From Protoeuglena noctilucae (Eukaryota), in assembly GCA_958009085.1 (NCBI GenBank), contig OY253671.1, positions 62,001 through 126,000 on the forward strand: a stretch of 64,000 nucleotides of DNA. Reading direction: 5' to 3'. The notes under the pieces are model-generated. The model had not been told where the DNA came from, did not search any database, and saw nothing but the letters and a program-made list of their open reading frames with translations. This document shows, piece after piece, positions 13,924-54,400 of the stretch. Position numbers and translations under genes: made by a program. Each line of letters begins with the position of its first letter. Positions within the stretch are counted from its first letter, which is position 1.

Positions 13924-16900
13924 ATGTCCCGGCCGTGGCCAGGCGCGACCGACGTGGGCGCGGGCCACACATCCGCCAGTGCAAACCGGCAGCCGGGCAC
14001 GCGGGCTCCGGGCTGGCGCGGTTCGCGCGGGAGGAATGCCGTCATTGCAAGGGTGAGGCATCGCTGCGTTCCCGTCGCGGCTCGGGCGGGCCAAAGCTCC
14101 TTGGCCGAGCAAAAAAGCAAGCGTGCCGCTTTTACGCGGCCGCGAACGCGACCGCCCCTCCGCCGCCCCGCGCAGGCGTCCCCGCTGGAGTCCGTGGCGC
14201 AGGCGGCATCGGACGCGGCGGGCCGCGTCGCCGAGGAGGTCACTTCCCTCGCTGCCCGTGTGCCGGGGGCGGTGGGGCCGGACGGGGCATTGCAAGACGG
14301 GTCGCTGCAGGACCACTGGGGCTCGCGCCTCGCCGCCGGGGCTGCCCGCGCCGCCGTCGACGCCGCGCGCGGCGCTGCGGGGATCTCTCCGGAGGGTGTC
14401 TGGGCAGACGCGGTATCGGCCGTGAGAGGCCTGCCGCCCGCCCTCAGCCAGGTGAGACTCGGCTCGTTGCATGGGTCCACGAGCGGGAATATACATTGTA
14501 TTCTTCTCATATGTGAGATGCGAATGGCGCTTAGTGTCTCTTGTAGGGTCGCTGCTAGCTAGCGAGCATGCCACCGTGCCAGCACAGGCCGAGCCACCGC
14601 TGGCATTTGCTACCATTGTCACTCTTACTCAATTATCGCTCCTCTTACCACCCCTGCAGTACCTGTCGTCAGCCGGGGGTCCTCTGTCCGCCGATGCGCA
14701 GCGACTGGCAGCAGATGCGACAGCAGCAGGGCAGGCGACAGCTGATGCCATCGCAGCACTTACGGGAGACGCAGCGCAGATCGCCGCGGACCTCGTCGGA
14801 GCGGCGCAGGCGCTGGTGACCGCTGCCGTCGCCCCGCTGGCAGCGCCGGCATCGGCGGGGGCGGCGGCGGGGGCGGCGTGGGCGGCGGCAGTTGCAGCGG
14901 CAGTGGCGGCGCCGTTCGTCGACCCTGCGCTGCTCTCCGGGGCCGGCGACGCCCCGCTGGTGTCCTCCGGCGCCCTCGCGACCCCCGCCTTCGCCGCGCT
15001 CGTCGCCACGGTGTTTCTGGCACCGCTGGCGGCGCTGCTTGTCAGCCGGTCGCGCGCCAGAAACGACGCCGACCAGCCTGGTGTCTTCGATGTGGACCCC
15101 GAGCTGCCCCGGGAATACAACGTGGATGCGCTCGCTGCCTATTATGCGAAGCGCCCGGGACAACTGATTGGCAGGGCCACGCAGACGGGGCAGCGGGTGA
15201 GGGGGGGCGGTGTATGGGATGATGTGATGTGGGGTGGAGCACGTTTGCGTGTGTGATGTGACATGTGACTCTGTTGTCCTGTCCATGACTGTTCGCATAA
15301 TAACTCTCTTACTGACTCTTCTCCCCTCTCATCTCCCCCAGGTGGGTCTCGTGGCCCTGGGCATTCTGACGGACGTGCGGATGGGGAGGGTGAAGGAGAA
15401 CGAGAGGATGCGGGCGAGGCAGGCGAGCCGTCATGTTATATTGAATACTAATGGTAATACTACCAATACTTAGTATACCATATGTAAGTACCACTGTATA
15501 AGTGTAGTACTACTCTAATTTACTATGTCTCCCTCAGAATCATTGTATTTCTCTTACTCTATTTTACTATGTATTCCCATTCTCGCGCAGGTCCGCGAGG
15601 CGTGCGAGGACCTGGGCCCCGCGTTCGTGAAGGTGGCGCAGGTGCTGTCGACGCGGTCGGACATCCTGTCGGACGCATACATGAGGGAGGTCATGAAACT
15701 GCAGGACCAAGTGCAGCCGTTCGAGACAGCGGAGGTGAGACTTGTTACAACCACCACTACTGCCACTGCCACCCTCAACCCCATCCCCCCTGCCACCCTC
15801 ATCACCACCCCCCACTGCCACCCTCAACACCACCCCCACTGCCACCCCCAATGCCACCCTCACTGCCACCCTGAACACCACCCCCACTGCCACCCCCACT
15901 GCCACCCTCACTGCCACCCTGAACACCACCCGCACTGCCACCCTCATCACCACCCCCACTGCCACCCTCACTGCCACCCTCAACACCACCCCCACTGCCA
16001 CCCCCACTGCCACCCTCAACACCACCCCCACTGCCACCCTCAACACCACCCCCACTGCCACCCCACCTCACCCCATACCCCACCCCATACCCCCCCCCCA
16101 CAAACCCAGGCCTTGGATCTGATGCGCCAGGAGCTGGGCCGCGACCCATCGGAGGTGTTTGCTTCTATCACCCCCGAACCTGTGGCAGCCGCGTCGCTGG
16201 GGCAGGTCTATCGCGCGACGCTGAGGGACGCGTATGGGGGAGGGGAGGTGGCGGTCAAAGTACAGAGGCCCAGGGTGCTCGAGAGGGTGGCGTTAGACCT
16301 GTACGTCATAAGGGAGGCGTGCCGGTGAGCGGGGTTTGGGGAGAGAGAGAGTTGAGAATGAGAGTTGTCCTATCTCATATCTCAGATCTCACTCACCTGT
16401 CACCTCTACCACCTCACCCCTCTCACCTCTCATTTCTCCCCTTCACCCCCAGCCTGGCCCACCAGCTCTTCCCCTCATCCGTCGCCACGGACTTCTCCCC
16501 CGTCATTGACGAATGGGCCGTGAGGTTCTTCCGGGAAATGGACTACACCATCGAGATGCAGAACGCAGTGGTGAGTTGGTGATATAGATACAGTAAAATG
16601 GACTTCACCATCGAGATGCAGAATGCAGTGGTGAGATTTAGTAGACTTTTATAGATAGCAGTAATGGATCGATCGTGTGCTTGTTATGTAATGATGCACC
16701 ATTGAGATGCAGAGCGTGCTATGATGCTGGTCGCTATAGTAATAGTTCATAATACAACAAAACAAAACAACATCACAAACTACCACCACGTAGCCATCAC
16801 CCCCGGCCCACCCATCCCCCCCCTCCCCCACCTGCAGCGTTTTGCGGAGGGCGTGCGCGGATTGGACGGCATCCTGGTGCCCCGGCAGTACCCCGACCTC

Positions 16901-19836
16901 ACCTCGCGCCGGCTGCTGGTGACGCAGTGGGTGGAGGGGGAGAGGCTGGTCGACTCGAAGGCAGACGACGTCAGGCGAGAGAGGGTTATATGTAATTATA
17001 TAATTATATAATATAATTATTGTTAATATATAAATGTAATACAATATAGTAACACGTGGGATAATGGACGGTGGCTGTTCTCATGGCTACATAGTACTCG
17101 GTAAGTATTACAACCCACTGTCTTATCCCCCTTATTCAAACCCAGGACCCTCTGCGACACTCTCTTGAATTGCTATCTGATCCATTATTATCCATTGCCA
17201 TCCAACCCAACCCATTCTCATCTCAAACCCAGGACCCTCTGCGACACTCTTTTGAATTGTTATCTGATCCAGTTACTCTCATCCTCATCCATTACCATCC
17301 CTATTCAATGAATGCAGGACGCTCTGCGACACTCTTTTGAATTGTTATCTCATTCAACTACTCGACACCGGATTCCTGCACGCCGACCCCCACCCCGGCA
17401 ACCTCCTCCGCACCCCCGACGGCCGCATTTGCATTCTGGATTACGGGCTCATGACCGAAGTGGACACCGACAAGCAGTACGCGTTCGTGGAGTTCATCGG
17501 TGAGTGGATGGGGTGGTGGGTTGGGTGGATATAAGCAGTATATGTTACTGATTGATATGAGCAGTACACCCATCTGAACCTCCCTTACTATATATTTGAT
17601 TTCCATCTCTCTTCCCACCCTTTCATAAACACAGTTACAAATATAAATAATATAATGAATGTCTCAAAATTACTTCTTACCCCCTCCAGGCCACCTGTCG
17701 ACCGGCAACTGGGCGGGCGTGGCTCAGGACCTGGTGAACCTGGAATTCGCCCCCCAGGGGTACACCAATTTGCTGGAGGTGGAGGGGTTTTTGGAGTTGA
17801 TCGAGCAGGCGAGGATTAGGGGGATGGGTATGCTCGAATTGGGATATGATTGTTTTACTGACACTGAGAAACCCAGATTACAATACCATTACTCTTATCA
17901 CCTTGTCCTGTCCCCAACTCCCTATCCCAGGTCCTGAGCGTCCTGATGCTGACGGGCGGCGGCGCCGACCGCGTGCAAGAGCGCGCCAGGTCCATGAACA
18001 TCGGGGTGGTGTTGGACGAATTGGAGGACATGAGCAAGGAGTACCAGTTCGTGATTCCGCCCTATTTCGCCCTCGTGCTGAGGGCCTTCTCCGTCATTGA
18101 GGGCATCGCGCTGAGGGTCGACCCGGACTACGCCATCGTCAAGGTGAGGGGTTGTGGGGGTGGTGGGTGTGTGTGTGGGGGGGGTGGATATGAAGAGATG
18201 GTGGAAGGACATTGATCCGGTTAAACTTGTATTTCGCATTGTCACTGTTGCACTCACTGCTGCCCTTGCTGTCGCCCCAACACCACCCCCACTGCCACCC
18301 TTATCACCACCCTCCACAACACCCCTCCTTAACCCCCCCCTCCCTCTCAGGAGTGTTTCCCTTACCTCTCCCGCCGCCTTTTGCGCGACCCCTCCCCCCG
18401 CATGCGCCAAGCACTGAGGGAGCTGCTTTATGACAAGGGAAAGCGCATCGACGTCGAGCGACTGAGGAGACTGGCGTCGGGACTGAGTCAGTTCACTACT
18501 GACGGTCTGACGGAGAGAGATGCAGGGGTGGGGGTGGGGGCGAGGGCGAGGGGGGGGCGTGTGTTGGATCGGACAGCAGTGGAGGCGGTGAAGGTGAGAA
18601 GGAGATTGGGGGGTGGTGGTGGTTGTTGTTAATGTATGTGTGTGTGTGGATGTGGTGGGTGGCAGTGTGGGTGTGGGCGTGGGTGTGGGGTTGCGGCTCA
18701 TAACACCACCACAGTTGACAACAACACCACCCCACCCCCATATCCCCGTATCCCCCACCACCCCGACAACACAGGTGGTGTTTGCCAAGGACGGCTCGTA
18801 CATCGCGGACCTTCTGGTGGACGAGCTTGCAGCGACCCTCCACGCATTGTCCCGTGAAGCGGGATTGGAGTTGACGCGGGCGGTGCTGAGCAGCGCGGCG
18901 GTGGCGGGGAGTCAGCAAGCGGTGCGGGCGCTGGGGCCACTACGGCCGATCGTGGCGCCCCTGCCGCTGCCCTCGGAGGTGAGGGGTTTTGGTAGATAGG
19001 CTGTGCGGGTGTGGGGTGTCTTGGTTGTTTGTTAAGATAGTCGGTCACAATCACAATTAACAGTCACCCACCAACCCCTCCCGTCTCAGGTCCTCGCCCG
19101 CCTGTCCCCCGCCGTCCGCCTCACACTCTCACCCTCACCGATAGTCACATACTATCAACCACAGTAAACAATCACAACAAACAATCACTCCCACCCATCC
19201 CATCCCCCACCTCAGGTCCTGGCCCGCCTGTCCCCCGCCGTGCGCCTGACCGAAGACGACCGCGTCGCCCTCCACAACGTGAGGGTGCTGTGGTCCGAAC
19301 TGCAGCCCATCATCACCAGATCCCTGGCACTGGCACCTGACGCAGCGAACTCGCTGTCAGGGGACCGGCTGCGTTTACTGGCGGAGGCGGGGGCGGAGCT
19401 GGGGGAGCTGTTGCCGGAGATCGCGCCGGGGCTGCAGAGGGCCAATCGGCGATTGGTGTCGGATCTGCTCAGAACGACCGCGGAGAGGCTCGTGCAGGTG
19501 AGGGTGGGGTGGGGTAGGATTGGGGGAATAAAGTGGGGTTAGTGGGGTTGTGGGGTGGGGTGGGGGTAGGTGTGGGGGGGGTGGGGTTGAGGAGTGCAGT
19601 GGTGGGCAGTGGTGATGGGGAGTGGGTGTGCAGGGGAAGGGTTGAGTGGGTGGTTTCACAGCACATCGTCACAGTCACAGCACATTGTCACAGTCACAGC
19701 ACATTGTCACAGTCACAACACTTCCGTCACAGCACGTTGCGATACGCATCAGGGTGATGCACCCACGCATCACCCTCCCTCCCCTTCTCCTTTCCCCCAG
19801 GATTTGGACGAGGCGCGCAAGATGCAGCTCGTTTGA
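13924..19836 (+). CDS. ABC1/UbiB-family atypical kinase (plastid ABC1K type), about 13 exons
   Basis: Motifs GPAFVKVAQVLSTRSD, AAASLGQVYRA, VAVKVQRP, HADPHPGN, LDYGLM, PPYFALVLRAFSVIEGIAL; stop at 19836. Start ATG inferred. Confidence 0.92.
15750..16065 (+). repeat. 12-bp minisatellite (CCCCACTGCCAC / CCTCAACACCAC) in an ABC1K intron
   Basis: About 25 tandem units visible. Confidence 0.9.
19656..19735 (+). repeat. 19-bp tandem repeat (CAGTCACAGCACATTGTCA) x3-4, intronic
   Basis: Direct tandem copies. Confidence 0.85.
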
Positions 19837-20161
19837 AACGAGGGGCAGCTTGTTTGAAATGAGGGGCAGCTTCCGACGGGAACGGGACCGGGAGTGGAGT
19901 GGCGTTGGTGATTAGGGAGCTGAGAGGGTCATGGGGCTGTAAGGGGTGCGACAGATTGCCCAACGTAGGCAGCTGTGGCAGGGCTGGGAGGGCTGGATTT
20001 TGTAGTCTTGTTTGCAGATGCAGCGTCACCGTTACACTAGCCGGACCTGCTTCGTTTTAATTTGAAAGCACGCTCGTCTCACGATTGCTCCCGTGTTCTA
20101 AACAGAGGGTGTCATTTACTTATCATTCACTTAGGATTCAAATCTATACCATTCCCATTGT

Positions 20162-23100
20162 TCACGAGTACACCTCCCCCGACCGTATGTAGTCGAATGC
20201 CTCTTTCGCCAACACCTCCACGAAAAGGGGGTACCCCCCCAATGCTGCGTCTGCCAGCGTGGGACTCTCCCTGGACACCCAGCCCTGCGAGCGAGGTCGG
20301 GATTATGGCACATCATGGTGACAGGAGGTGATAGTAGCAATGAAGTACAATAAAATTGTTTTAAAATTTTGAATCTATACCTAACAGATATTAAAATATT
20401 ATAATAACAACTAATAAAACCCACTGTCCCACCCCCTCACCTCCGCGGGCTCCTCGATGAGCATCCTCACGAGCCGTGGGTCGTCGCACGGGTCGCCTTC
20501 GTAGCCCAGCAGCTGCGTGCGGGGGGTGATGCTGCGGGACGCCTTGACCGCCTGCATGTGCCTGAGCGGGAGAAGGAGAGAAGGGGGTGATGGCAATGCA
20601 CCTTCATTTAAAATAGAGAAAAGCTATGCTTGGAACACACCCCCTCGATTGCCGCCCATCGGCGCAACCCCCACCAAAACGTGACCCGTCTCCCTCACAC
20701 ACTAACGGCCCATCTCTCACGTCTCAATTACTTATTATACACACCTCATCCACGCTCACCTGGCGAGTGGCGCGTCCGGGGGTGGCGGCCAGGGCATCCC
20801 CGCCGCCCCCGCCTCGCTGTACACCAACAGAAGGGCATAGAAGGTATCCAGCAGAAACGCAGCCACCTCCTCCTGCTCCTCCTCCACCGTCTGGGGGTGT
20901 TAATTGATAATAATTAGTATTAGAGTTTTATAATTATTGATATTTTTGTTGTAGTACATGTGGTTAGGAGTGCGTTGGGTGCATCGCTCCCTCGCCCCTC
21001 TGCTTAGCAGCATAGCTAATAACAACAGTAACAATACCAATACCAATACCAATACCAATACCAATACCAATACCACCACATCACTCACCCCCCTGCTGAG
21101 CAGCAGCCGGTCGTGCGCGATTTCCGACAGCGAAGCCCACGACTCCAGGACAGGGTAGACAGCACGCGTCAATTCGTGGGGCGGCAGCGCACACCACAAT
21201 GACAAAATGAAGGGGCGCAGGTCGGGGTGGGACGGGTCGAAGCCGGATGTGGGGGGGGCGCCGGTAAAGGGGGGGGGGGTAGCCTGGGGGTGGGGGTGGT
21301 GGTGAGGGTGGCAGTGGGGGTGGCAGTGGGGGTGACAAGAGTGAATGTGCATGTACAACCTGTCGCGCCACCACCATACCATCGACACTCTATCAGTCAA
21401 CGCATTGCATGTCCCAACCACACACACACACACACCCTCACCATTCACGCCCACCACGTCCCCCATCGGCCCCGCCACAGCCGGCATGGGCCCGTCCGCC
21501 GCCTGCTTGGTTTGAATTTGAATTCCAGTGCCGTCCCTTGCAGTGTAGGGGAGCAGGGGCGAGCGCAGGAGGGCGTAGACCAGGCGGGGGATGACCTGGA
21601 GCTGCAAATGGGGTGAAACGAAAGAGATGGTTGTAATATGGTAACTATGGTGATAATATATGCAGATAGTATAGAAAGGGTGGTAATAGCAAAGACGGCG
21701 ACGTCCTGGGTGCACGACACTGAATAAGCGACAACTGCATAAAATGCACATAGTAACATCTCATGATCCATCTATAATATCCATATATAACATCAATCTA
21801 TAATATATTTCATATCAACCTGCGGGAACGCGTCCAGATCCACCAGCACGTCGTCCGTGGCAAAGTCGTCCGGGATAATCACCCCCTGTCGCTCGTACAT
21901 ATTGGCAGTATATCGAGAAACACAGTTGACGAGCCAATCGGCGACCAGGTCGCGGGCGCTGGGGATGCCCTCCACACTGCGATTGTTTGGGGGTGTGGGT
22001 GTGGGTGAGTGGGGGTGGGTGAGGGTGAGTGAGAGTGGGGGTGAGGGTGCGGCGGCGAGGGAATGAGTGCATGAGCAGGGCCAGGCATGTTGCGACCAGG
22101 AACACACACAGACATAAGCAGCATATATAATTGTATATACCATAATTGTGTACACTAACAACTACTGTATATCCTCGCCTGGCCGCCTTCATGGCCTTGT
22201 GCATGAGAAGAGCCAGCACTGCGTCGGGGTCCACGTCCCTGTAAATGTCGCTGGGGCGATGGCCGATGTCGAAACGCACTGGGAGATGAAAGAGAAAGGA
22301 TTAAGTTATTATTGTTATTACAATAGTAATAGTAATAGTAATAGTAATAGTAATAGTAATAGTAATAGTAATAGTAATAGTAATAGTAATAGTAATAGTA
22401 ATAGTAATAGTAATAGTAATAGTAATAGTAGAAGTAATAGCAATAGTAATAGTAATAGTAATAGTAATAGTAATAGTAATAGAAATGGTAATAGTAATAG
22501 TAATAGTAATAGTAATAGTAATAGTAATAGTAATAGTAATAGTAATAGTAATAGTAATAGCAATAGTAATAGTAACAATAACAACGACAGCCAACCCTAT
22601 TACTCACTGGTGCTCAGCCGTATGCGCCTCTCCAGCGTATACCCCACCCCAGACCCCAAGAAGCCATCTTCGTCGTCCCCACCCCCCTCCGCACCCGCAC
22701 CCGCACCACCACCCTCCACATCCACACCCCCATTGCCACCGGCATTGTCAACACCCGCGTTATTGACACCCGCATTACCACCCACATTGCCACCCGCAAT
22801 CCCACCCCCACTGCCACCCCCACCCGCCCCCTCCACCCCAACCCCCCTCGCCCCCCTCAGATCCTCAAACGCCCTCCGCACGCCCCCCTCGTCGTCAGCG
22901 TCAGACCCAGAATTGCCAGAATGGGATTGCGAGGGGGATGCCCCTCCCCTGTTTCTGGCGCGATGGGTCAGGGCCCTCGCGATGCCCGCCCCCGCCTCCC
23001 GCCGGCCCGAGGAGGCCTGGGGGTGGAGATGAAAGGAAAAAATTGAAAATGGGATTTGAAAAAAAGGATTGAAATGTGGTTGTTCAACATACTCACAGTT

Positions 23101-26100
23101 ACTATCCTAACGCAATCACGGACTTAGTTAGTACTACTAACTCAGTAGCAGTCACCACACTCACCGCCTGCTTGCCCCCACTCTGCATGATAGGGAACTC
23201 TCACCGCCATGCAACCCACGATCACAGCCACTATCTGTTAACAGTAGATAGCACATACTATGTAATAGCACCCCCCATCAATCAATCACCGCTCACTGCC
23301 TGCTTCCCCCCCGCCTGCCCCTGCCTGCTGACGATGGCGGTGTAGCTGAACGCCACTTGAATAGTCGGGGGATTGAGCGCTGTCTGGGAGAAAGCACGAA
23401 ACCCGTCTGCGGACGTGAATTTGAAATCGACCGCAAAGGCGTCCCGGCCGTCGCACGCCACTACGTGATGGAGGTCGTTGTACTGGTCGTCCTGGGGAGA
23501 GGGGGGAGAGTAATACTTTTTTTATATTACTATCATAGTATATGATATAATAATAACAGGAAAATGATGGTAATAATAGTAATAATAAAATTACTTAAAA
23601 TTACTCTAGGGCAAATATCAACAAAATTGATGCCAATATCACCTTGAACAGCCTGCCGTACGCCTCAGCCACCTCGAAGTCCGGCGACGTCCGGACCCGC
23701 AGCATGCCGCTCGTGCCCCTCTGGGCGGAGACTCGCTTGGCCACGTCCTGGGGCATACCACACCCATCCAGGCTGGGATACAGGGCAAGGAAGCCGCCGG
23801 AGCTGCGGGTGACGGCCTGGGGATGGGGGGGGGGGGGGGAAGGGGGTGAGTGGGTGATGGGGGTGGGGTGGGGGTGGGGCGGGGGTGCATTGCGGGAGAC
23901 GGCCTGTGTGTGTAGGGGGGGTGTAGGGGTGTGGGTGTCACTCCTACACTCCCTCACTCAGTCACTCACTCACTCATCCACTAACTCACTCACTCCCTCA
24001 CCCACTCACTCACCTCAATGCTCTCCAGCCCCACCACATCTCCCCTGTCTGTCACTGCATACACATCCACCGTCACACCCAGCGCCGCCGCAGCCACAGC
24101 CGCTTCCTCATAAAAGGGACGAGCGCGGGCGTATGCCAAACCATGGGGGGTAGTCGGAGCATGGTCGGGCTTGTTGGTGGCCTGCGATGGTGGTACAACG
24201 GGGAACAGAGAGTGAGGGAGTGGCGCGTGATGTGTTATGCAATTGCTGCCATTCCACATTTCATGCAGATGCGCCCACACACGCCCATAAACCACCAGAA
24301 CCCACCCCAACGCACATCAACCATGTACCTACCACCCCCCATCTCACGCACGCACTTGCACAATCCAACCCCATGCACATCCCCATCCCCCACCCACTCT
24401 CTCACCTGCCCCCCCATCTCATGCACCCTTCCCCGCCCCGCGTTTGGCCCTCCCGCCAAGAAACACAGCAGCCTCGCCCCTGCATAAGTCACTGCCTCCG
24501 CCACACCCGCACCACCCCCACCCCGCCGCCCCCTCCTCAGCCGCGCTTGAAGCCCCGCCAGCACCGGCCCTGCTCCTTCCGCCAAATAACGCAGCGTGGC
24601 TTGCAGTGCGGGCCCGAACGCTCGCACGGGGGCGGTGGCGGGGTCGGTGGTTGAAGCGTCGATGTGGTGGGTAAAGACCGCGTCGATCAGGCTGGGAGTG
24701 GGATGAAAAGAGGAAAGGACAAGGTTAATATTCAATAATGATGATCTTATAACAGTCAGGCTGTGTACTGTATGTGGTGGGTGAAGACCGCGTCGATCAG
24801 GCTGGGAGTGGCTCGGAAAAGATGAGGGTTATTGTTCATTGATTCAAATGATCATTTAGTATTACAAATTTCAGGTTTCGCTGCACATAACACCCTTCCA
24901 TCCCCACCCCACCCCTCACCCGCACCCACCCCCCCCTCACCTCCTCAGCGCCCCCCCTCCCCCCTCCCCCGTCCCCGCCAGAGCGTGTTCGAGCGGCAAC
25001 GCATCCTCCAGCGCAACCTCCGCAGGCGCCCCTCCCCCCTCATTCCCCAAACTCAGCGCCACCCATCGCGCCCCCACCGCCCCCCCCTTCACGCCCACCC
25101 CGTACAAGCCTAGGTGAGAGGAAAACGTGAGGATACCGAAAAGGGTGCCGGGGGATAGTGACTCGATCGCAGCTTCCAGTGACGATTGGACAGTCGACAG
25201 GAAGTCCGCAGATCCAGTCACGTCCACCAGCGCCAGGCAGATGGGGTGGCCGACCTGGGGAGATGTCGGGGAGCGGAGGTGTAGGATTTGAATTTGAATG
25301 GTGGATGAAGGTGGGTGAGGTGAGGGCAGGTCCTGGTGGGTGGCAGCGGTGCGCTGTGCGGTGTTTGGGCCATCCAATCCAAACGTGTTTTGGGCATGTA
25401 TAGCCTATAATCATATGCAGTATTGCACACAACACTCTCAGGTATGTGAATTTGATACTACTTCTCTCCCCCAGCCACCAAGCCGCTCGCCTGCACTGCG
25501 GCGGAGAGCCCCGCGGGCCCTGCCTGCCCCGCATCGTCCCCCGTCACCACCAGCTCCGTCACGCCCGGCCTGCGATCACGGAGATACGCGAATACAGAGC
25601 AATTGCAGAGCAGATTAGATCAGCTATGACAAACGCGCATCGCCGGCCCTGTTAAGGTCGGCAGACTTTGCCGCGCTGTGCAGCACCCTTGCCCAGCACC
25701 CTTGCCCGCGCTCTGCGCCTCCCGCGCGCGCGCAAACGATTAGATACCTCATCCGCAATCGCACCTGAGCTCCGGCAGCCGCGCGCGGCTCGAGGGCGGG
25801 CCGTAGCGGTCCTGCAGGTCCCGGTAATCATTCACCCCCGAGCAGAGCGCGCACGTCCACGAGTACAGATCGAACGAGCAGACGCGGGACACCCACGCAA
25901 AGCAGTACTGGCAGCGGGCCACGGAGCTGGGCGCAGGGGCGGGGAGAGCGCGTGGAAGCCAGGCAAGTCCGGGCGCTGGCTCTTTCCAAACCGGGGCGAT
26001 CGAGGCGAGCGGCGGCGCGACGGATGGCGAAAAGGTATTTGAATCGAATCGTGTCCCACGCGCGGCGAGGCGAGCCGCATCCCGGACTCGCGCGCGGCTC

Positions 26101-48452: not shown

Positions 48453-51400
48453 ATGTCCCTCCCCGCGCTCGCCTCTCGTCCGCTGCTGGCCGCCGCCCGA
48501 GCCCGCCAGCCCTCCGCGCGCCGGGGCGTGCTGCTGGTCCGATCCGCGGCCGCCGTCGCCGAGCCGATCAAGTACGCGGCCCCCCGCCAGGCGCACGGAT
48601 TCGAGCTCGTGCGGGAGAAGTTCGTCGCCGAGGCGAGAGCCGCGCGGATCAGCCACGCGCGGGGCGCTTTGAGCTCGATAATCACCTCATGTGCAATTTT
48701 ACTCGCGAACGGAGGTCAAACGGCCCCCGATTGACTCTCCCGCAGAACGATTCGCACGTGTTGATGTACCGTCACGTGAAGACGGGCGCGGAGGTGATGT
48801 CGCTGGTGTGCCGGGACGAGAACAAGTGCTTTGGCGCCGTGTTCCGCACTCCGCCCTCCGACTCGACCGGAATCCCCCACATCCTCGAGCACTCGGTGCT
48901 CTGCGGGTCCCGCAAGTACCCCATTAAGGCGAGGGGGCGAGCGAACGAGCGAGCGCGGCTGCACTGAGAGGTTCTGCAACACGCGCATCGACAGCACTTG
49001 CAACACCAGATTCCAAACCATCCCCCATCTCCCACCCCACCCCAGGAGCCCTTCAACGAGTTCATGAAGGGCTTTCTAGATATCCTTCTGGAAATGATAT
49101 CTTAACACCTCCCTCCATATAACCCCTCCCCCCATCTCCCCAGGAGCCCTTCAACGAGCTCATGAAGGGCTCCCTCAACACCTTTCTCAATGCCTTCACC
49201 TACCCCGACCGCACCTGCTACCCCGTGGCCAGCACCAACCTCCAGGACTTCTACAACCTGGTCGACGTGTACCTGGATGCCGTGCTGCACCCCAAGTGCG
49301 TCGACGACGAGATGACATTCAAGCAGGTGAGGAGTGGGTGGGGGGGGGTGGGGGTGGCAAGAGAGCAGGGGAGGGGGTGGGCGTGGGGTAAGCGAGTGAT
49401 CTGCATACAGGCTGGCACTTGGAGCTGGACAGAAGACAGCATCATGTTGGTATGTAATACTAGTACTAGATGTAAGACTAATTGTAATACTAACACTCAC
49501 AACCCCACTCCCCCATCCCCACCCAGGAGGGCTGGCACCTGGAGCTGGACCGCCCCGACGAGGACGTGACCATCAAGGGCGTGGTGTTCAACGAGATGAA
49601 GGGCGTGTACTCGCAGCCCGACTCGGTCTTCTATCGCACAGTCCAAGCGGAGCTGTTCCCTGACAACACGTACGGGGTGGACTCGGGGGGCGATCCTTTG
49701 GTCATCCCGGACCTCACGTTCAAGGGGTTCCGGGCGTTCCACCAGGTGAGTGATGGGGAAGTGGTGGTAGCTATTAGTATAATCATATAGAGAGTAATAT
49801 ACTTTCTATAATGGTTGTGTTCGAGGGGTTTGGGGCGTTCCACCAGGTGGGGGGCGGGGGGTGAAGAGAGCGGGGATAGAGAGTTAGAGTAGCCTTAATG
49901 AGGCAACTGGTGCAGCAGCACTGACCACCACACCTCATCTTTTTTACTACACTCTGTCAACACACAACATAGTACTAGCTAACACCCCCATAACGCATCG
50001 ATTCCCCCAGAAGTTCTACCACCCCTCCAACGCCCGCTTCTGGTTCTATGGGGACGACGCCCCCGAGGAGCGACTCCGCATTCTGGCGACGTATTTGGAC
50101 GAATTCGAGAAGAGGGACGTCGACTCGGCCGTGCCCGTGCACAAACTATTTCAGGAGCCCAAGAAGGGTGAGGGGGGTGGGGTTGGGTGGGGGTGTGGGG
50201 GTGGGGTGTGATGATGGGGTGGGGTGCATGGGGTAGCGATGAGCAAGGGGGTGGGGTAGGGGGTAGCGATGGGCGAGGGTGAGGGAAAGGGGTGGAGTGG
50301 GGTGGGGGTGGGGGGGTGATGGTGTGTGGGGGCCGTCACAACCCCACACCGCGTTCCCCCCACCTGTCGCACCTGCACGCGGTCCATACATTCCCTTACT
50401 TACTTACCATCTATCTCTGAATCCATCTATCCCAATCCCACCTTTCTCACACCACCATCTACCACCATCCATCCCCGCATCCATCTGTTCCAATCCCATC
50501 ATATCTATCCCACTCCCACCATATCTGATCCCCCCACCTCCCTCTCACAGTCACTAGGTACTACGCGGCAGGGTCGGCCGACGATGGCGACATGGCAATG
50601 GGAGAGGGCGAGGAAGAGGGAGTGATGGAGGAGGGTGCTAGTGAGGGTGCTGGTGAGGGTGCCAGTGAGGGTGCTAGTGAGGGTGCCTGTGAGGGTGGCA
50701 GTGAGGGTGCTAGCGAGGGCCTTACTGAGACTGAGAGTGGTCCCTCTGACAATGCAGCGTCGGACCGCAAGGCCTTTGCTTCCGTGTCGTGGGTGCTGAC
50801 GGATGAGGACCTGGATGTGCAGACAGAGCTGGCGCTGGGGTTCCTGGACTACCTCATGACGGGCACGGCAGCATCGCCACTGGTGAGAACGAGAGAGGGG
50901 GGGTGGGTGTAGTTGTAGGTGGTGATGGGGTAGGGTGAGGGGTGGGGGGTGGATGGGTGATGTGAGTGACGGGCACGGCAGCATCGCCACTGGTGAGGGG
51001 GTGGGGTGGTGGGTGTAGTGGGTCGCCGGCTGGCTTGCAAGAGTAATTGTAATGCCAAGTTGGGGTACCTCAATTACAACGTTGTCATGTAACTTGACAC
51101 CACCCTCTCCCCTCTCCCCTCCTCATCCCCAGCTCAAGGCGCTGAATGACTCCGGCCATGTCACTACTACAACCCGTAACACCCATCTCCCTTCCCCCAC
51201 CCACAGCGCAAGGCCCTGAACGACTCTGACCGTATCACTATTGTCCTTAACAATAACTTATAACACCCTATCCCTTCCTCATCCCCAGCGCAAGGCGTTG
51301 AACGACTCTGGCCTGGGCGAGGCGCTGGTGGGGGGCGGCATGGAGGACGATCTCAGGCAGCCGGTCTACTCGATCGGGCTCAAGGGGGTGGACCCCAAGG

Positions 51401-54400
51401 ACTGCGACAGGGTGGAGGCGCTGGTGTTGGAGACGCTCGAGGTGAGTGGGAGTGGTGATGGTTAACTCTACTTAGTACTACTTAGTGCTACTTAGGACTA
51501 CTAGTAAGGTGTAAAGGGCTGCGACAAGGTGGAGGCGCTGGTACTGGAGATGCTGGAGGTGAGAGTGGGGTGGTGGTAGTGGCGGTGATGGTGGAGGTGG
51601 TAGTGAGGGTGGTAGTGATGGTGGAGGTGGTAATTGAGGCACTGGTGTTGGAGACGCTCAAGGTGAGTGGTTGGTGGTGGGGTTAGTGTTGGTGGTGTTG
51701 GTGGAGTTCGGGGGCGTGCGATCGTGACTGGAGAGACGCACTAACCCCCCCCTTCCCCAATCCCCCCAGCGCCTCTCCCGCGACGGCTTCCCCTCTTCAT
51801 CGATCGAGGCTGCGATTAACACGATCGAGTTCTCACTGCGCGAGAACAACACGGGCCGCTTCCCCCGTGGTTTGTCGCTCATGCTGCGGGCGGTGGGGAC
51901 GTGGCTGTATGACAAAGACGCCTTTGAGGCTCTGGAGTGGCAGGGGCCACTGGAGGAATTCAAACGGAGGGTGAAGGAGGACCCGGGGGTGTTTGGGGGG
52001 TTGATCCGGAAGTATTTGCTGGAGAACAAACACCGGTGAGGGAGTTGACTTCGGGGGGGAGTAATAGGGGTGGTGTGTGGATGAGGGAGTGAGTGGATGA
52101 CTGACACCGGTGAGGGTTGGGTCACCCTCGCTGCCACCCCCACTGCTACCCCCATTCATCACCCCCCCCCCCCAGCGTCACCGTGAACCTGCTCCCCGAC
52201 TCTGAGCTGGGCCCTGCGATGGAGAAGCAAGAGAGGGACCGCATCGCCCGCGCCACTTCTGGCATGAATCAGTCTGACCGGGAGGCCCTGGTGCGTCAGA
52301 CCGAGGAGCTGAAGAGGAGGCAGGAGACGCCCGACGCGCCCGAGGCACTCAAGGTGAGAGGGGTGGGTGGTGGTGTGTGGTGAGAGAGAAGGGTGGGTGG
52401 TGGTGAGAGAGAAGGGATGGTGATGGGGTGGTGGTGGTAGTAATGATGAAAGAGAGTAGCCGGTGCTATCAGTGAGGTCCATGCGACCAGCAACCAACAA
52501 CCTCACCCACTCCCCCACCATCTAACCCCCTCACCCCCCACCCCTCACCCCATCACTCACCACTCACCCCACCCCATCCCCCTTCCCCCCCCCCGCAGTG
52601 CGTCCCCTCCCTCCAGCTCTCCGACATCCCCACGCGCGCCGCCACGATCCCCACGTCTACCTCAAACGAGCAGTCCGCGACTGTGCTGCGGCACGATCTC
52701 TTCACCAACAGCGTGCTATACGCGGAGCTTGCTCTCGACATGACGGGGGTCCCCATGCACCTCATCCCCCTCATCCCCCTCTTCTGCCGCTGCCTCACGC
52801 AAATGGGGACAGCGCAGGAATCGTTTGTGGAGCTGACCGCGCGCATCGGGCGCAAGACGGGCGGTGTCAGTGTGTCGCCTTTTGTGTCGGAAGTGAGGGG
52901 GAGGGCGGACCCGGCGGCTTTCGTGGTGGTCAGGTGGAAGGCGATGGGGGACAAGGCGGGGGAGCTCACGGGTGAGGGGGTGGGTGGTGATGGGTGGGGT
53001 GGTGGGGTGCATGTGAGGGGGAAGGCGATGGGTGACAAGGCGGGCGAACTGACGGGTGAGGGGTGGGCGGGGGTTTAGGTGGATGGTGGGTTAGAGCCAC
53101 ACAGACCGCCTCATCGCCTATCCCTTCCCCCGCGACCAGCCAACCGCATCTGCCCTCGTCTCTTCACCCACATCCACCCCACCTTTGCCCTCTTCCACCC
53201 CACCCCCCTCGCTCCGTATCTACTATTGCCCCTCCCCACCCCCCGCACCCGCAGACCTAATGCGCGACATCCTGCTCACCGCTCGCCTGGACGACCGCAG
53301 CCGTTTTCGGCAGATGGTGTTAGAGACCAAGGCGGGGCTGGAGGCGGCCGCGGTGGGGTCAGGGCACTCGGTGGCGGCTACGAGGCTCGACGCGCAGGTG
53401 AGGGGGAGCGGGAGATGTGATGCGTGATGAGAGATGAGAGCAAGAGAGTACTGAGGTGTATGGTTTGGCTGGGAAGGTGCGGTGGGTAGATAAGAGATGC
53501 TGGCGATGCATGGTCTGGTCTGCAGCAAGGGTTGTCACTAAGTACCGATGAGATGAGGTCTTAGGCTAAGATGTGGGTGCTGGTCTATCGAAGAGAGTTT
53601 GCTCGACAGCCCACTGCAACAGCCAAGCCATCCACGCCCGTCGTCATCCCATCGACCGGCCACCATCACGCATCATGCCCCGCACCCCCCCCTCACTCCC
53701 GCAGCGCTCGATCGCCGGCTGGGTGGGCGAGCAGTTCTCTGGCGTCACGTACCTCGACTTCATCCGCGAGTTGGCGCGGAGGGTGGAGAGCGACTGGGAC
53801 GCGGTTCGGGGCGATCTCGAGTCCATCCGCAGCGCACTCCTGCAGCGGCGGGGGGCGCTTGTGAATCTCACTGCCGACGCGGCGACGCTCGAGAGCAGCG
53901 CGGCGCACGTCAGCGGGCTGCTGGCGGCGCTGCCGGAGCAAGTGGCGGGGGCGGCGGGGCCGGCGTGGGCGCCGGTGTTGGTCGGGCGCAACGAGGCGCT
54001 GACGGTGCCGACTCAGGTCAACTATGTCGGCAAGGCGGTGAATCTGTACGAGGATGCGGGGTACAAGGCGAGGCGGGCTGGATGCAAGGCTTGGTGCATG
54101 CACGGTGGGGCAGGTGGATGACAGCGATAACAGCGCGTCGTGACGCTCTGCGGTTGGTCCTGGGCTCGGGCCCAGGATGAGCCCCAGAGCGGCTTGGACG
54201 CGCTGGTATCGCGGGTCGAGTTGCGGCATGCAATGAGCGAGCGGTGGTCAGGTTGGGATGGCGCAGCCGTTGCGAGCGTATGTAGACGCGCACTGTATTG
54301 CTCTCGCTGAGTTGAGCTGACAAGTTTGTCCCATTCCCCGCAGCTGTCCGGCGCGGCGTACGTCATCTCCAAGCACGTGGGCAACAGCTACCTGTGGGAC

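Follow-up and report, generated by a model that had tools for sequence, protein, structure and literature searches.

Two described systems resemble the feature reported here. In the human F7 gene, a 37-bp variable number tandem repeat (VNTR) lies at the exon 7/intron 7 boundary, and the pseudo-donors in its intron 7 units are identical to the authentic site (PMC1557585). These pseudo-donors are functional yet silent, and the most upstream site is the one selected (Borensztajn et al. 2006, PMC1557585). In the Rogers model, tandem duplication of an AGGT exon segment gives rise to a new intron, whose 5' end copies the start of the downstream exon and whose 3' end copies the end of the upstream exon (Hellsten et al. 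2011, PMC3265369; PMC3443670). Here we describe a duplicated 3' splice site in a 64,000-nt stretch of Protoeuglena noctilucae DNA (GenBank assembly GCA_958009085.1, contig OY253671.1, positions 62,001 to 126,000 of the forward strand). This whole stretch is called the window below, and all positions are window positions on its forward strand (+) unless marked (-). In a gene for an ABC1 kinase (ABC1K), the junction between intron 7 and exon 8 is spanned by a short tandem array of ~2.7 units, each 85-87 nt long, so that three versions of the same acceptor and exon start follow one another.

Tandem Repeats Finder reported an array at 17136-17350 (period 87, 2.5 copies, 82% matches, score 265), and a repeat search located three copies of 49 nt, in register with one another, that begin at 17136, 17223 and 17308 (spacing 87 and 85 nt), the second and third being 96% and 80% identical to the first. 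The 36-mer at 17315-17350 matched at 17143 with three mismatches, at 17230 with one and at 17315 with none, and it had no match in any of 100 dinucleotide-preserving shuffles. Every unit contains CAG|G (17143-17146, 17230-17233 and 17315-17318), after which all three copies encode TLCDTLLNCYLI; the second copy (copy B) and the real exon extend this peptide to QLL. Gapped self-BLAST aligned whole units with each other (17136-17278 versus 17223-17363, 146 nt, 81.5% identity, E = 1e-27), indicating that the spacers are homologous too and that tandem duplication stands as the origin of the units.

The upstream two copies lie inside the intron and are referred to here as decoys. Exon 7 (16838-16974, placed by tblastn and the exon model) ends in GAC GTC AG, the last two bases belonging to a split Arg codon. 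Intron 7 (16975-17317, 343 nt) is a GC-AG intron (CAG|GCGAGA ... GCAG|G) that contains both decoys, and the array takes up ~180 of its 343 nt. Decoy A (17136-17184) consists of a 10-nt acceptor tail, TCAAACCCAG, with CAG at 17143-17145, and a 39-nt exon-like head from 17146 that encodes (R)TLCDTLLNCYLI. A low-complexity, ATCCA-rich spacer (17185-17222), weakly alignable to the next one, separates it from decoy B (17223-17278), which has its own acceptor tail, CAG at 17230-17232 and a 46-nt head from 17233 encoding (R)TLCDTLLNCYLIQLL. The second spacer together with the real acceptor tail spans 17279-17317. Real exon 8 (17318-17499) starts with the third repeat copy, which forms its first 46 nt, and continues with DTGFLHADPHPGN into the ABC1 kinase core. 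Both decoys retain an intact CAG and a tail rich in C and T, with CTTAT/CTCAT motifs upstream that resemble candidate branch points, and neither copy is followed by a GTGAG or GCGAG donor. Copies A and B are 87 nt (29 codons) apart, so a reading frame that starts at A stays open across B, and entry at either decoy leads to a TGA at 17309-17311; the frame entered in this way gave no Pfam match.

Alignment to the homologous protein P0001 identifies the third copy as the working acceptor, because P0001 is colinear across 16974|17318 without an insert: in tblastn its residues 448-493 matched 16838-16975 and residues 491-554 matched 17310-17501, which leaves no room for one. The same search also matched decoy B (17231-17284). 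A gene model built from tblastn with P0001 and P0003 and a frame check spans 14141-19836 (i.e., the gene without its 5' end) and joins 14 exons across 13 introns into one 940-codon frame with its stop at 19834-19836. Together, these results bear out the original prediction that three tandem copies of an acceptor and exon start encode the same peptide, that the copy at 17318 begins the true exon, and that two good CAG decoys must be skipped to obtain a functional product.

The host gene is, as predicted from its sequence, an ABC1/ADCK/UbiB atypical kinase of green-alga type. Exons 8 and 5 both matched Pfam PF03109 (ABC1) well above its cut-off of 22.9 bits (E = 7.6e-15, 55.1 bits and E = 4.8e-21, 75.4 bits, respectively). 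An HADPHPGN stretch is common to the host gene and all 60 homologues listed; the exon 8 start (LC-TLLN-YL-QLL) is kept among the same 60 and is conserved from green algae to land plants. In database searches the top matches were unnamed metagenome sequences (86-88% identity), the best named ones coming from green algae (at most 78%), and no protein from the same or a sister species above 88% identity appeared in two protein searches. A degenerate DNA pattern for the shared peptide matched no metagenome contig. A protein-based metagenome scan returned 79 loci, mostly bacterial and of UbiB type, of which the seven best are intronless, paralogue-level ABC1K genes (~480-690 contiguous residues, 37-43% identity to P0001); these seven relatives (L001-L007) are devoid of the intron-rich structure of the window's gene. 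In four metatranscriptome runs, 0.33-0.42 of the words sampled from 14000-20000 were present, against 0.40 expected for exon words alone, which suggests that ABC1K is transcribed in the sea and that its transcripts are largely spliced there, at no resolution for the decoy acceptors.

Splice signals in this gene are unusually uniform. Ten of the 13 introns have GTGAG donors and three have CAG|GCGAG, and all 13 acceptors are CAG; the GC-AG introns that share CAG|GCGAG are introns 3, 7 and 9 (donors 15423, 16975 and 17809). Intron 4 (15761-16108) is mostly filled by 12.5 copies of a 12/24-nt tandem repeat, CCACTGCCACCCTCAACACCACCC, and related CCACTGCCACCC motifs also occur in another intron (18275-18325) and in a gene next to this one, where they are read in the reverse direction (~21290-21330).

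We compared the three copies codon by codon. Copy A differs from the real exon by five synonymous and no nonsynonymous changes over 12 codons (real/A: ACG/ACC, CTT/CTC, TGT/TGC, CTC/CTG and ATT/ATC), and copy B likewise by five and none over 15 codons (real/B: ACG/ACC, CTC/CTG, ATT/ATC, CAA/CAG and CTA/TTA). The codons behind the original count of ten synonymous differences out of ten are thus exactly as it listed them; the ten pairwise differences, however, amount to only seven distinct changes, since ACG/ACC, CTC/CTG and ATT/ATC are common to A and B. An unrooted comparison leaves two changes private to copy A, none to copy B and three to the real exon, and two further changes are covered by the B comparison only, so that five of the seven are not assignable to a decoy rather than to the real exon. 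Copy B looks mosaic, agreeing with A at three sites and with the real exon at two. At the start of exon 8 (17318-17362), only 7 of 15 codons end in G or C, and local GC content is 40-48% there versus 55-72% in the rest of the exon. The idea that a low GC content at third codon positions marks exon heads exchanging with their intron copies was dropped, as the pattern was seen by eye at this array and not at the others.

The junction of intron 7 is one of many duplicated junctions in the window. We searched the 64 kb for local direct repeats by whole-window self-BLAST followed by inspection, and this census yielded at least 15 curated arrays (20 decoy-real pairs) and two probable ones, on both strands. 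Eighteen of the 20 high-complexity local repeats in the window listing include a splice junction. The metagenome loci described above, 766 kb in total, served as a control for this census: they contained 0.13 repeats per 10 kb versus 2.5 per 10 kb in the window, so such a density is not common to DNA in general, although the control is weak, with mostly bacterial loci and few intron-bearing algae. Nine curated arrays repeat donors, at 16570, 29756(-), 31170(-), 43854(-), 45767(-), 46073(-), 49745, 50882 and 51441, and six repeat acceptors, at 17318, 19216, 2369(-), 24691(-), 49144 and 51289; the probable arrays are a donor at 23160/23292(-) and an acceptor at 49410/49530. In all 15 curated arrays the copy that is continuous with a long open frame is the outermost one (i.e., the 5'-most donor or the 3'-most acceptor), an assignment that outside the ABC1K gene was made by frame continuity alone. 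Decoy splice signals persist at a roughly neutral rate, about as expected, with GTGAG kept in 9 of 12 decoy donors and AG in 8 of 8 decoy acceptors. The period is divisible by three in 7 of 20 adjacent pairs, which reveals no bias towards such periods. In the literature searched, we found no account of an alga with densely duplicated junctions of spliceosomal introns, although a genome paper on this organism, if one exists, may have been missed.

Within the ABC1K gene itself, duplicated junctions occur in 3 of 13 introns (6, 7 and 12). The donor array of intron 6 (16536-16721) comprises the real exon end with GTGAG (16536-16575), a decoy that matches it at 38 of 40 positions (16596-16635) and a decayed decoy at ~16697-16721. 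The acceptor array of intron 12 (19080-19250) has a period of 126 and comprises a decoy CAG with head (19080-19124) and the real copy (19206-19250), whose three differences over 11 codons are all synonymous. Another affected gene in the window lies at 48900-51700 and has six duplicated junctions within ~2.6 kb, two of them triplicated: 49046/49144, 49410/49530, 49745/49846, 50882/50992, 51133/51207/51289 and 51441/51558/51662. From a reading of its translated peptides alone, we take it to be a PreP/M16C-like gene. It contains the youngest-looking array (50857-50997), in which the last 26 nt of an exon and the following GTGAG, 31 nt in all, recur without a mismatch 110 nt downstream; the downstream copy is directly preceded by another GTGAG, and the G-rich spacers share only a GTGGGTGTAGT block. 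A long trinucleotide-type repeat elsewhere in the window (22118-23032) reads (NS)n in one frame.

The array at intron 7 is probably a junction-spanning minisatellite that arose by local tandem duplication, a passive product whose spare copies are silent pseudo-acceptors. On this account, two rounds of duplication, brought about in the low-complexity DNA of the intron by slippage during replication or by unequal exchange, would each have copied the last ~10-40 nt of the intron and the first 39-46 nt of the exon, with right-hand end points that differed between the rounds (after ATCCA for A and after TTACTC for B). Of the three, only the most downstream copy runs on into the remainder of exon 8, which makes it the working acceptor, while the upstream two would have been absorbed into the intron as pseudo-acceptors. 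The GC donor at 16975 would normally be paired with the last acceptor and the decoys skipped, and occasional use of a decoy would yield a transcript with a premature stop. The exon 8 start would be under strong purifying selection at the protein level, which would admit only synonymous changes on the exon lineage, and the two changes assignable to a decoy lineage (that of copy A) would be synonymous by chance. The same process would have acted on many introns of this genome, on donors and acceptors alike.

Because the exon 8 start is conserved in green algae and plants, changes on the lineage of the real exon must be synonymous. With neutral decoys and constrained exons, the expected synonymous share is 0.36-0.53, depending on the mutation model. 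In the lenient pool of all 20 pairs, with alignment ends included, we counted 37 synonymous and 31 nonsynonymous differences (14, 14 and 40 at the three codon positions), which agrees with what GC-biased mutation would produce (P = 0.005-0.43). Nonsynonymous differences occur in 12 of 20 decoy-real pairs by the lenient count and in 8 of 21 by a strict one, and decoys across the window are clearly not strictly protein-conserved, so that the intron 7 locus is the extreme of a distribution. Correction of its 7 of 7 synonymous changes for 16 arrays gives P = 0.02-0.19, which is not proof of constraint on the decoys. The weight that the original prediction placed on its ten synonymous differences was accordingly greater than they can bear: the exon is conserved, five of seven changes are unassignable, and the locus is one of at least 15-17 such junctions.

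A number of results weigh against purely passive decay. Taken alone, the intron 7 locus departs from the neutral expectation (7 of 7 synonymous, P = 0.0005-0.012 uncorrected). The strict pool, which uses best local cores and counts shared changes once, gave 31 synonymous and 11 nonsynonymous differences, above the neutral-decoy expectation, and it remained so when the intron 7 locus was removed (24 and 11, P = 0.0002-0.046). The outcome hinges on the treatment of ragged ends, and a general synonymous excess is therefore possible and unproven. Heads and spacers also differ more than they should: over the 20 adjacent pairs, heads average 0.90 identity and spacers 0.59 by global alignment versus 0.52 in shuffles, with 7 of 20 spacer pairs above their shuffles by z > 3. 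At intron 7, decoys A and B are identical at 47 of 49 positions in tail and head, yet their spacers need indels and barely beat shuffles, sharing only a ATCCATTNCCATCC block, and at 50857/50967 the head plus GTGAG is identical at 31 of 31 positions beside spacers that do not align. Uniform neutral decay after plain duplication does not predict this contrast, which calls for either fast slippage in spacers or homogenisation of heads. The spacers are of low complexity, rich in ATCCA, CA or G, and the contrast is most simply explained by rapid slippage within them; homogenisation of heads by short conversion tracts is the alternative.

These same results speak for a rival reading in which the exon-like parts of the decoys are not neutral and stay in step with the real exon, either because local gene conversion is frequent and selection removes decoy versions that would harm the exon once transferred to it, or because the decoy junctions play a sequence-dependent part in splicing. 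Four arrays are entirely synonymous (the intron 7 locus, 7/7; 19090/19216, 3/3; 31108/31170, 3/3; and 43770/43854, 2/2), the strict count is 31 of 42 against an expected share of 0.38-0.53, and A and B have stayed 96% identical though their spacers have diverged. We nonetheless regard non-neutral decoys as unlikely. Between 8 and 12 decoys carry nonsynonymous changes, the lenient count of 37 of 68 lies within neutral expectation under GC-biased mutation so that end trimming decides the matter, periods that would preserve the frame are found in just 7 of 20 pairs, and the low-complexity spacers may simply mutate faster by slippage. Moreover, gene conversion alone would leave the synonymous share unraised, and a conversion rate high enough for indirect selection to act would also wipe out the synonymous differences that we observe.

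A more specific mechanism would take the head/spacer contrast at face value. It is rather doubtful that this alga repeatedly copies or re-homogenises a junction-centred segment of ~30-55 nt (the end of the exon with the splice consensus) into the neighbouring intron. It seems similarly improbable that, as this reading would have it, the exon parts of decoys follow the real exon wherever a base determines the amino acid, with spacers that turn over freely. Its machinery, junction-focused gene conversion or RNA- or repair-templated copying, with a spliceosome that systematically picks the outermost of several intact sites, is likewise a tentative proposal with the odds well against it.

Two further explanations fare much worse. 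The decoys at 17146 and 17233 could be deliberate 'poison' acceptors, use of which introduces a premature stop and triggers nonsense-mediated decay to tune ABC1K expression. Both sites do retain their CAG, C/T-rich tail and branch-point-like motifs, and either one leads to the stop at 17309-17311. That the same architecture recurs at ~16 further junctions, donors included, and in genes unrelated to ABC1K points instead to a mutational origin, and RNA folding of 17090-17400 revealed no stable structure that sets the sites apart (z = +1.23; 91 of 100 shuffles were as stable or more so), making regulation by these acceptors very improbable.

Just as hard to credit is an assembly artefact in which allelic or strain variants of one junction were placed side by side. 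Synonymous-only differences in exons beside indel-rich differences in introns do resemble diverged alleles. A two-haplotype mis-assembly nevertheless fits poorly, as had been argued from the start: no two of the three versions are the same, the decayed copies in sister arrays (heads 72-81% identical) are too old to be alleles, and the window contains no N. Furthermore, four sequencing runs labelled with the organism contain 97-98% of the 31-mers sampled from 14000-20000, a stretch of which the intronic copies make up 7.8%, and two marine metagenome runs contain 93% and 85%; the assembly's own data may be among these runs, and the order in which the copies stand is not proven by shares of this kind.

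Several other candidates were ruled out: a transposon target-site duplication and the Rogers model, by copies that lie on the same side as their source with their own acceptor tail; recursive splicing, by exon 7/decoy joins that regenerate no GT or GC donor; and mutually exclusive tandem exons, by decoys that have no donor and a frame that ends at the TGA at 17309-17311. In a test for introners, BLAST of intron 7 against the window returned only the local array and short low-complexity matches within these 64 kb.

The wider value of this locus lies in the ~17 junctions in 64 kb with intact spare donors or acceptors, which provide a natural experiment both on the choice of the spliceosome among equivalent sites and on the possible growth of introns through uptake of copies of their own ends. 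They also call for caution in annotation, as gene finders and protein-to-genome aligners will match decoys in the way that tblastn matched copy B. Should the possible synonymous excess and the head/spacer contrast hold genome-wide, they would point to concerted evolution between exons and intronic pseudo-junctions.

Among known systems, tandem duplicated mutually exclusive exons are also exon-like copies that encode nearly the same peptide. The ABC1K decoys differ in being exon fragments with an acceptor and no donor, which cannot replace the real exon. Internal gene duplications were reportedly surveyed across model genomes by Gao and Lynch in 2009, including their rates and their creation of new introns. 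Small tandem duplications of this kind can span exon-intron boundaries and so add spare splice sites, as they seem to have done here; unlike them, the ABC1K array lengthens an existing intron and makes none, and its density, with 3 of 13 introns affected, seems unusually high. The array also shares with the Rogers model the principle that duplication supplies duplicate splice signals and that splicing restores the original message. It departs from that model in that the copies of the exon 8 start lie in the 3' half of the pre-existing intron 7, on the side of their source and each with its own intronic tail, and in that the predicted mRNA junction is CAG|GAC and not AGGT.

By analogy, the closest documented counterpart is the F7 intron 7 VNTR. 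In both cases, units are arranged head to tail, the terminal unit lies across the exon-intron boundary and each unit carries the splice consensus; in ABC1K, homologue colinearity and reading frame predict that the outermost site alone gives the conserved product. The two differ in several respects. In F7 a mammalian 5' splice site is repeated, and in ABC1K an algal 3' splice site; the F7 repeat is 37 bp long, whereas the ABC1K units are 85-87 nt and diverged; and the silence of the F7 pseudo-sites was shown by experiment, whereas that of the ABC1K decoys is predicted. Many introns of the same algal region carry duplicated junctions, moreover, with donor versions at other junctions of the window. 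We thus propose that ABC1K intron 7 is a 3'-splice-site counterpart of the F7 pseudo-donor repeat, in which three near-identical acceptors stand in a row and only the last is predicted to be usable.

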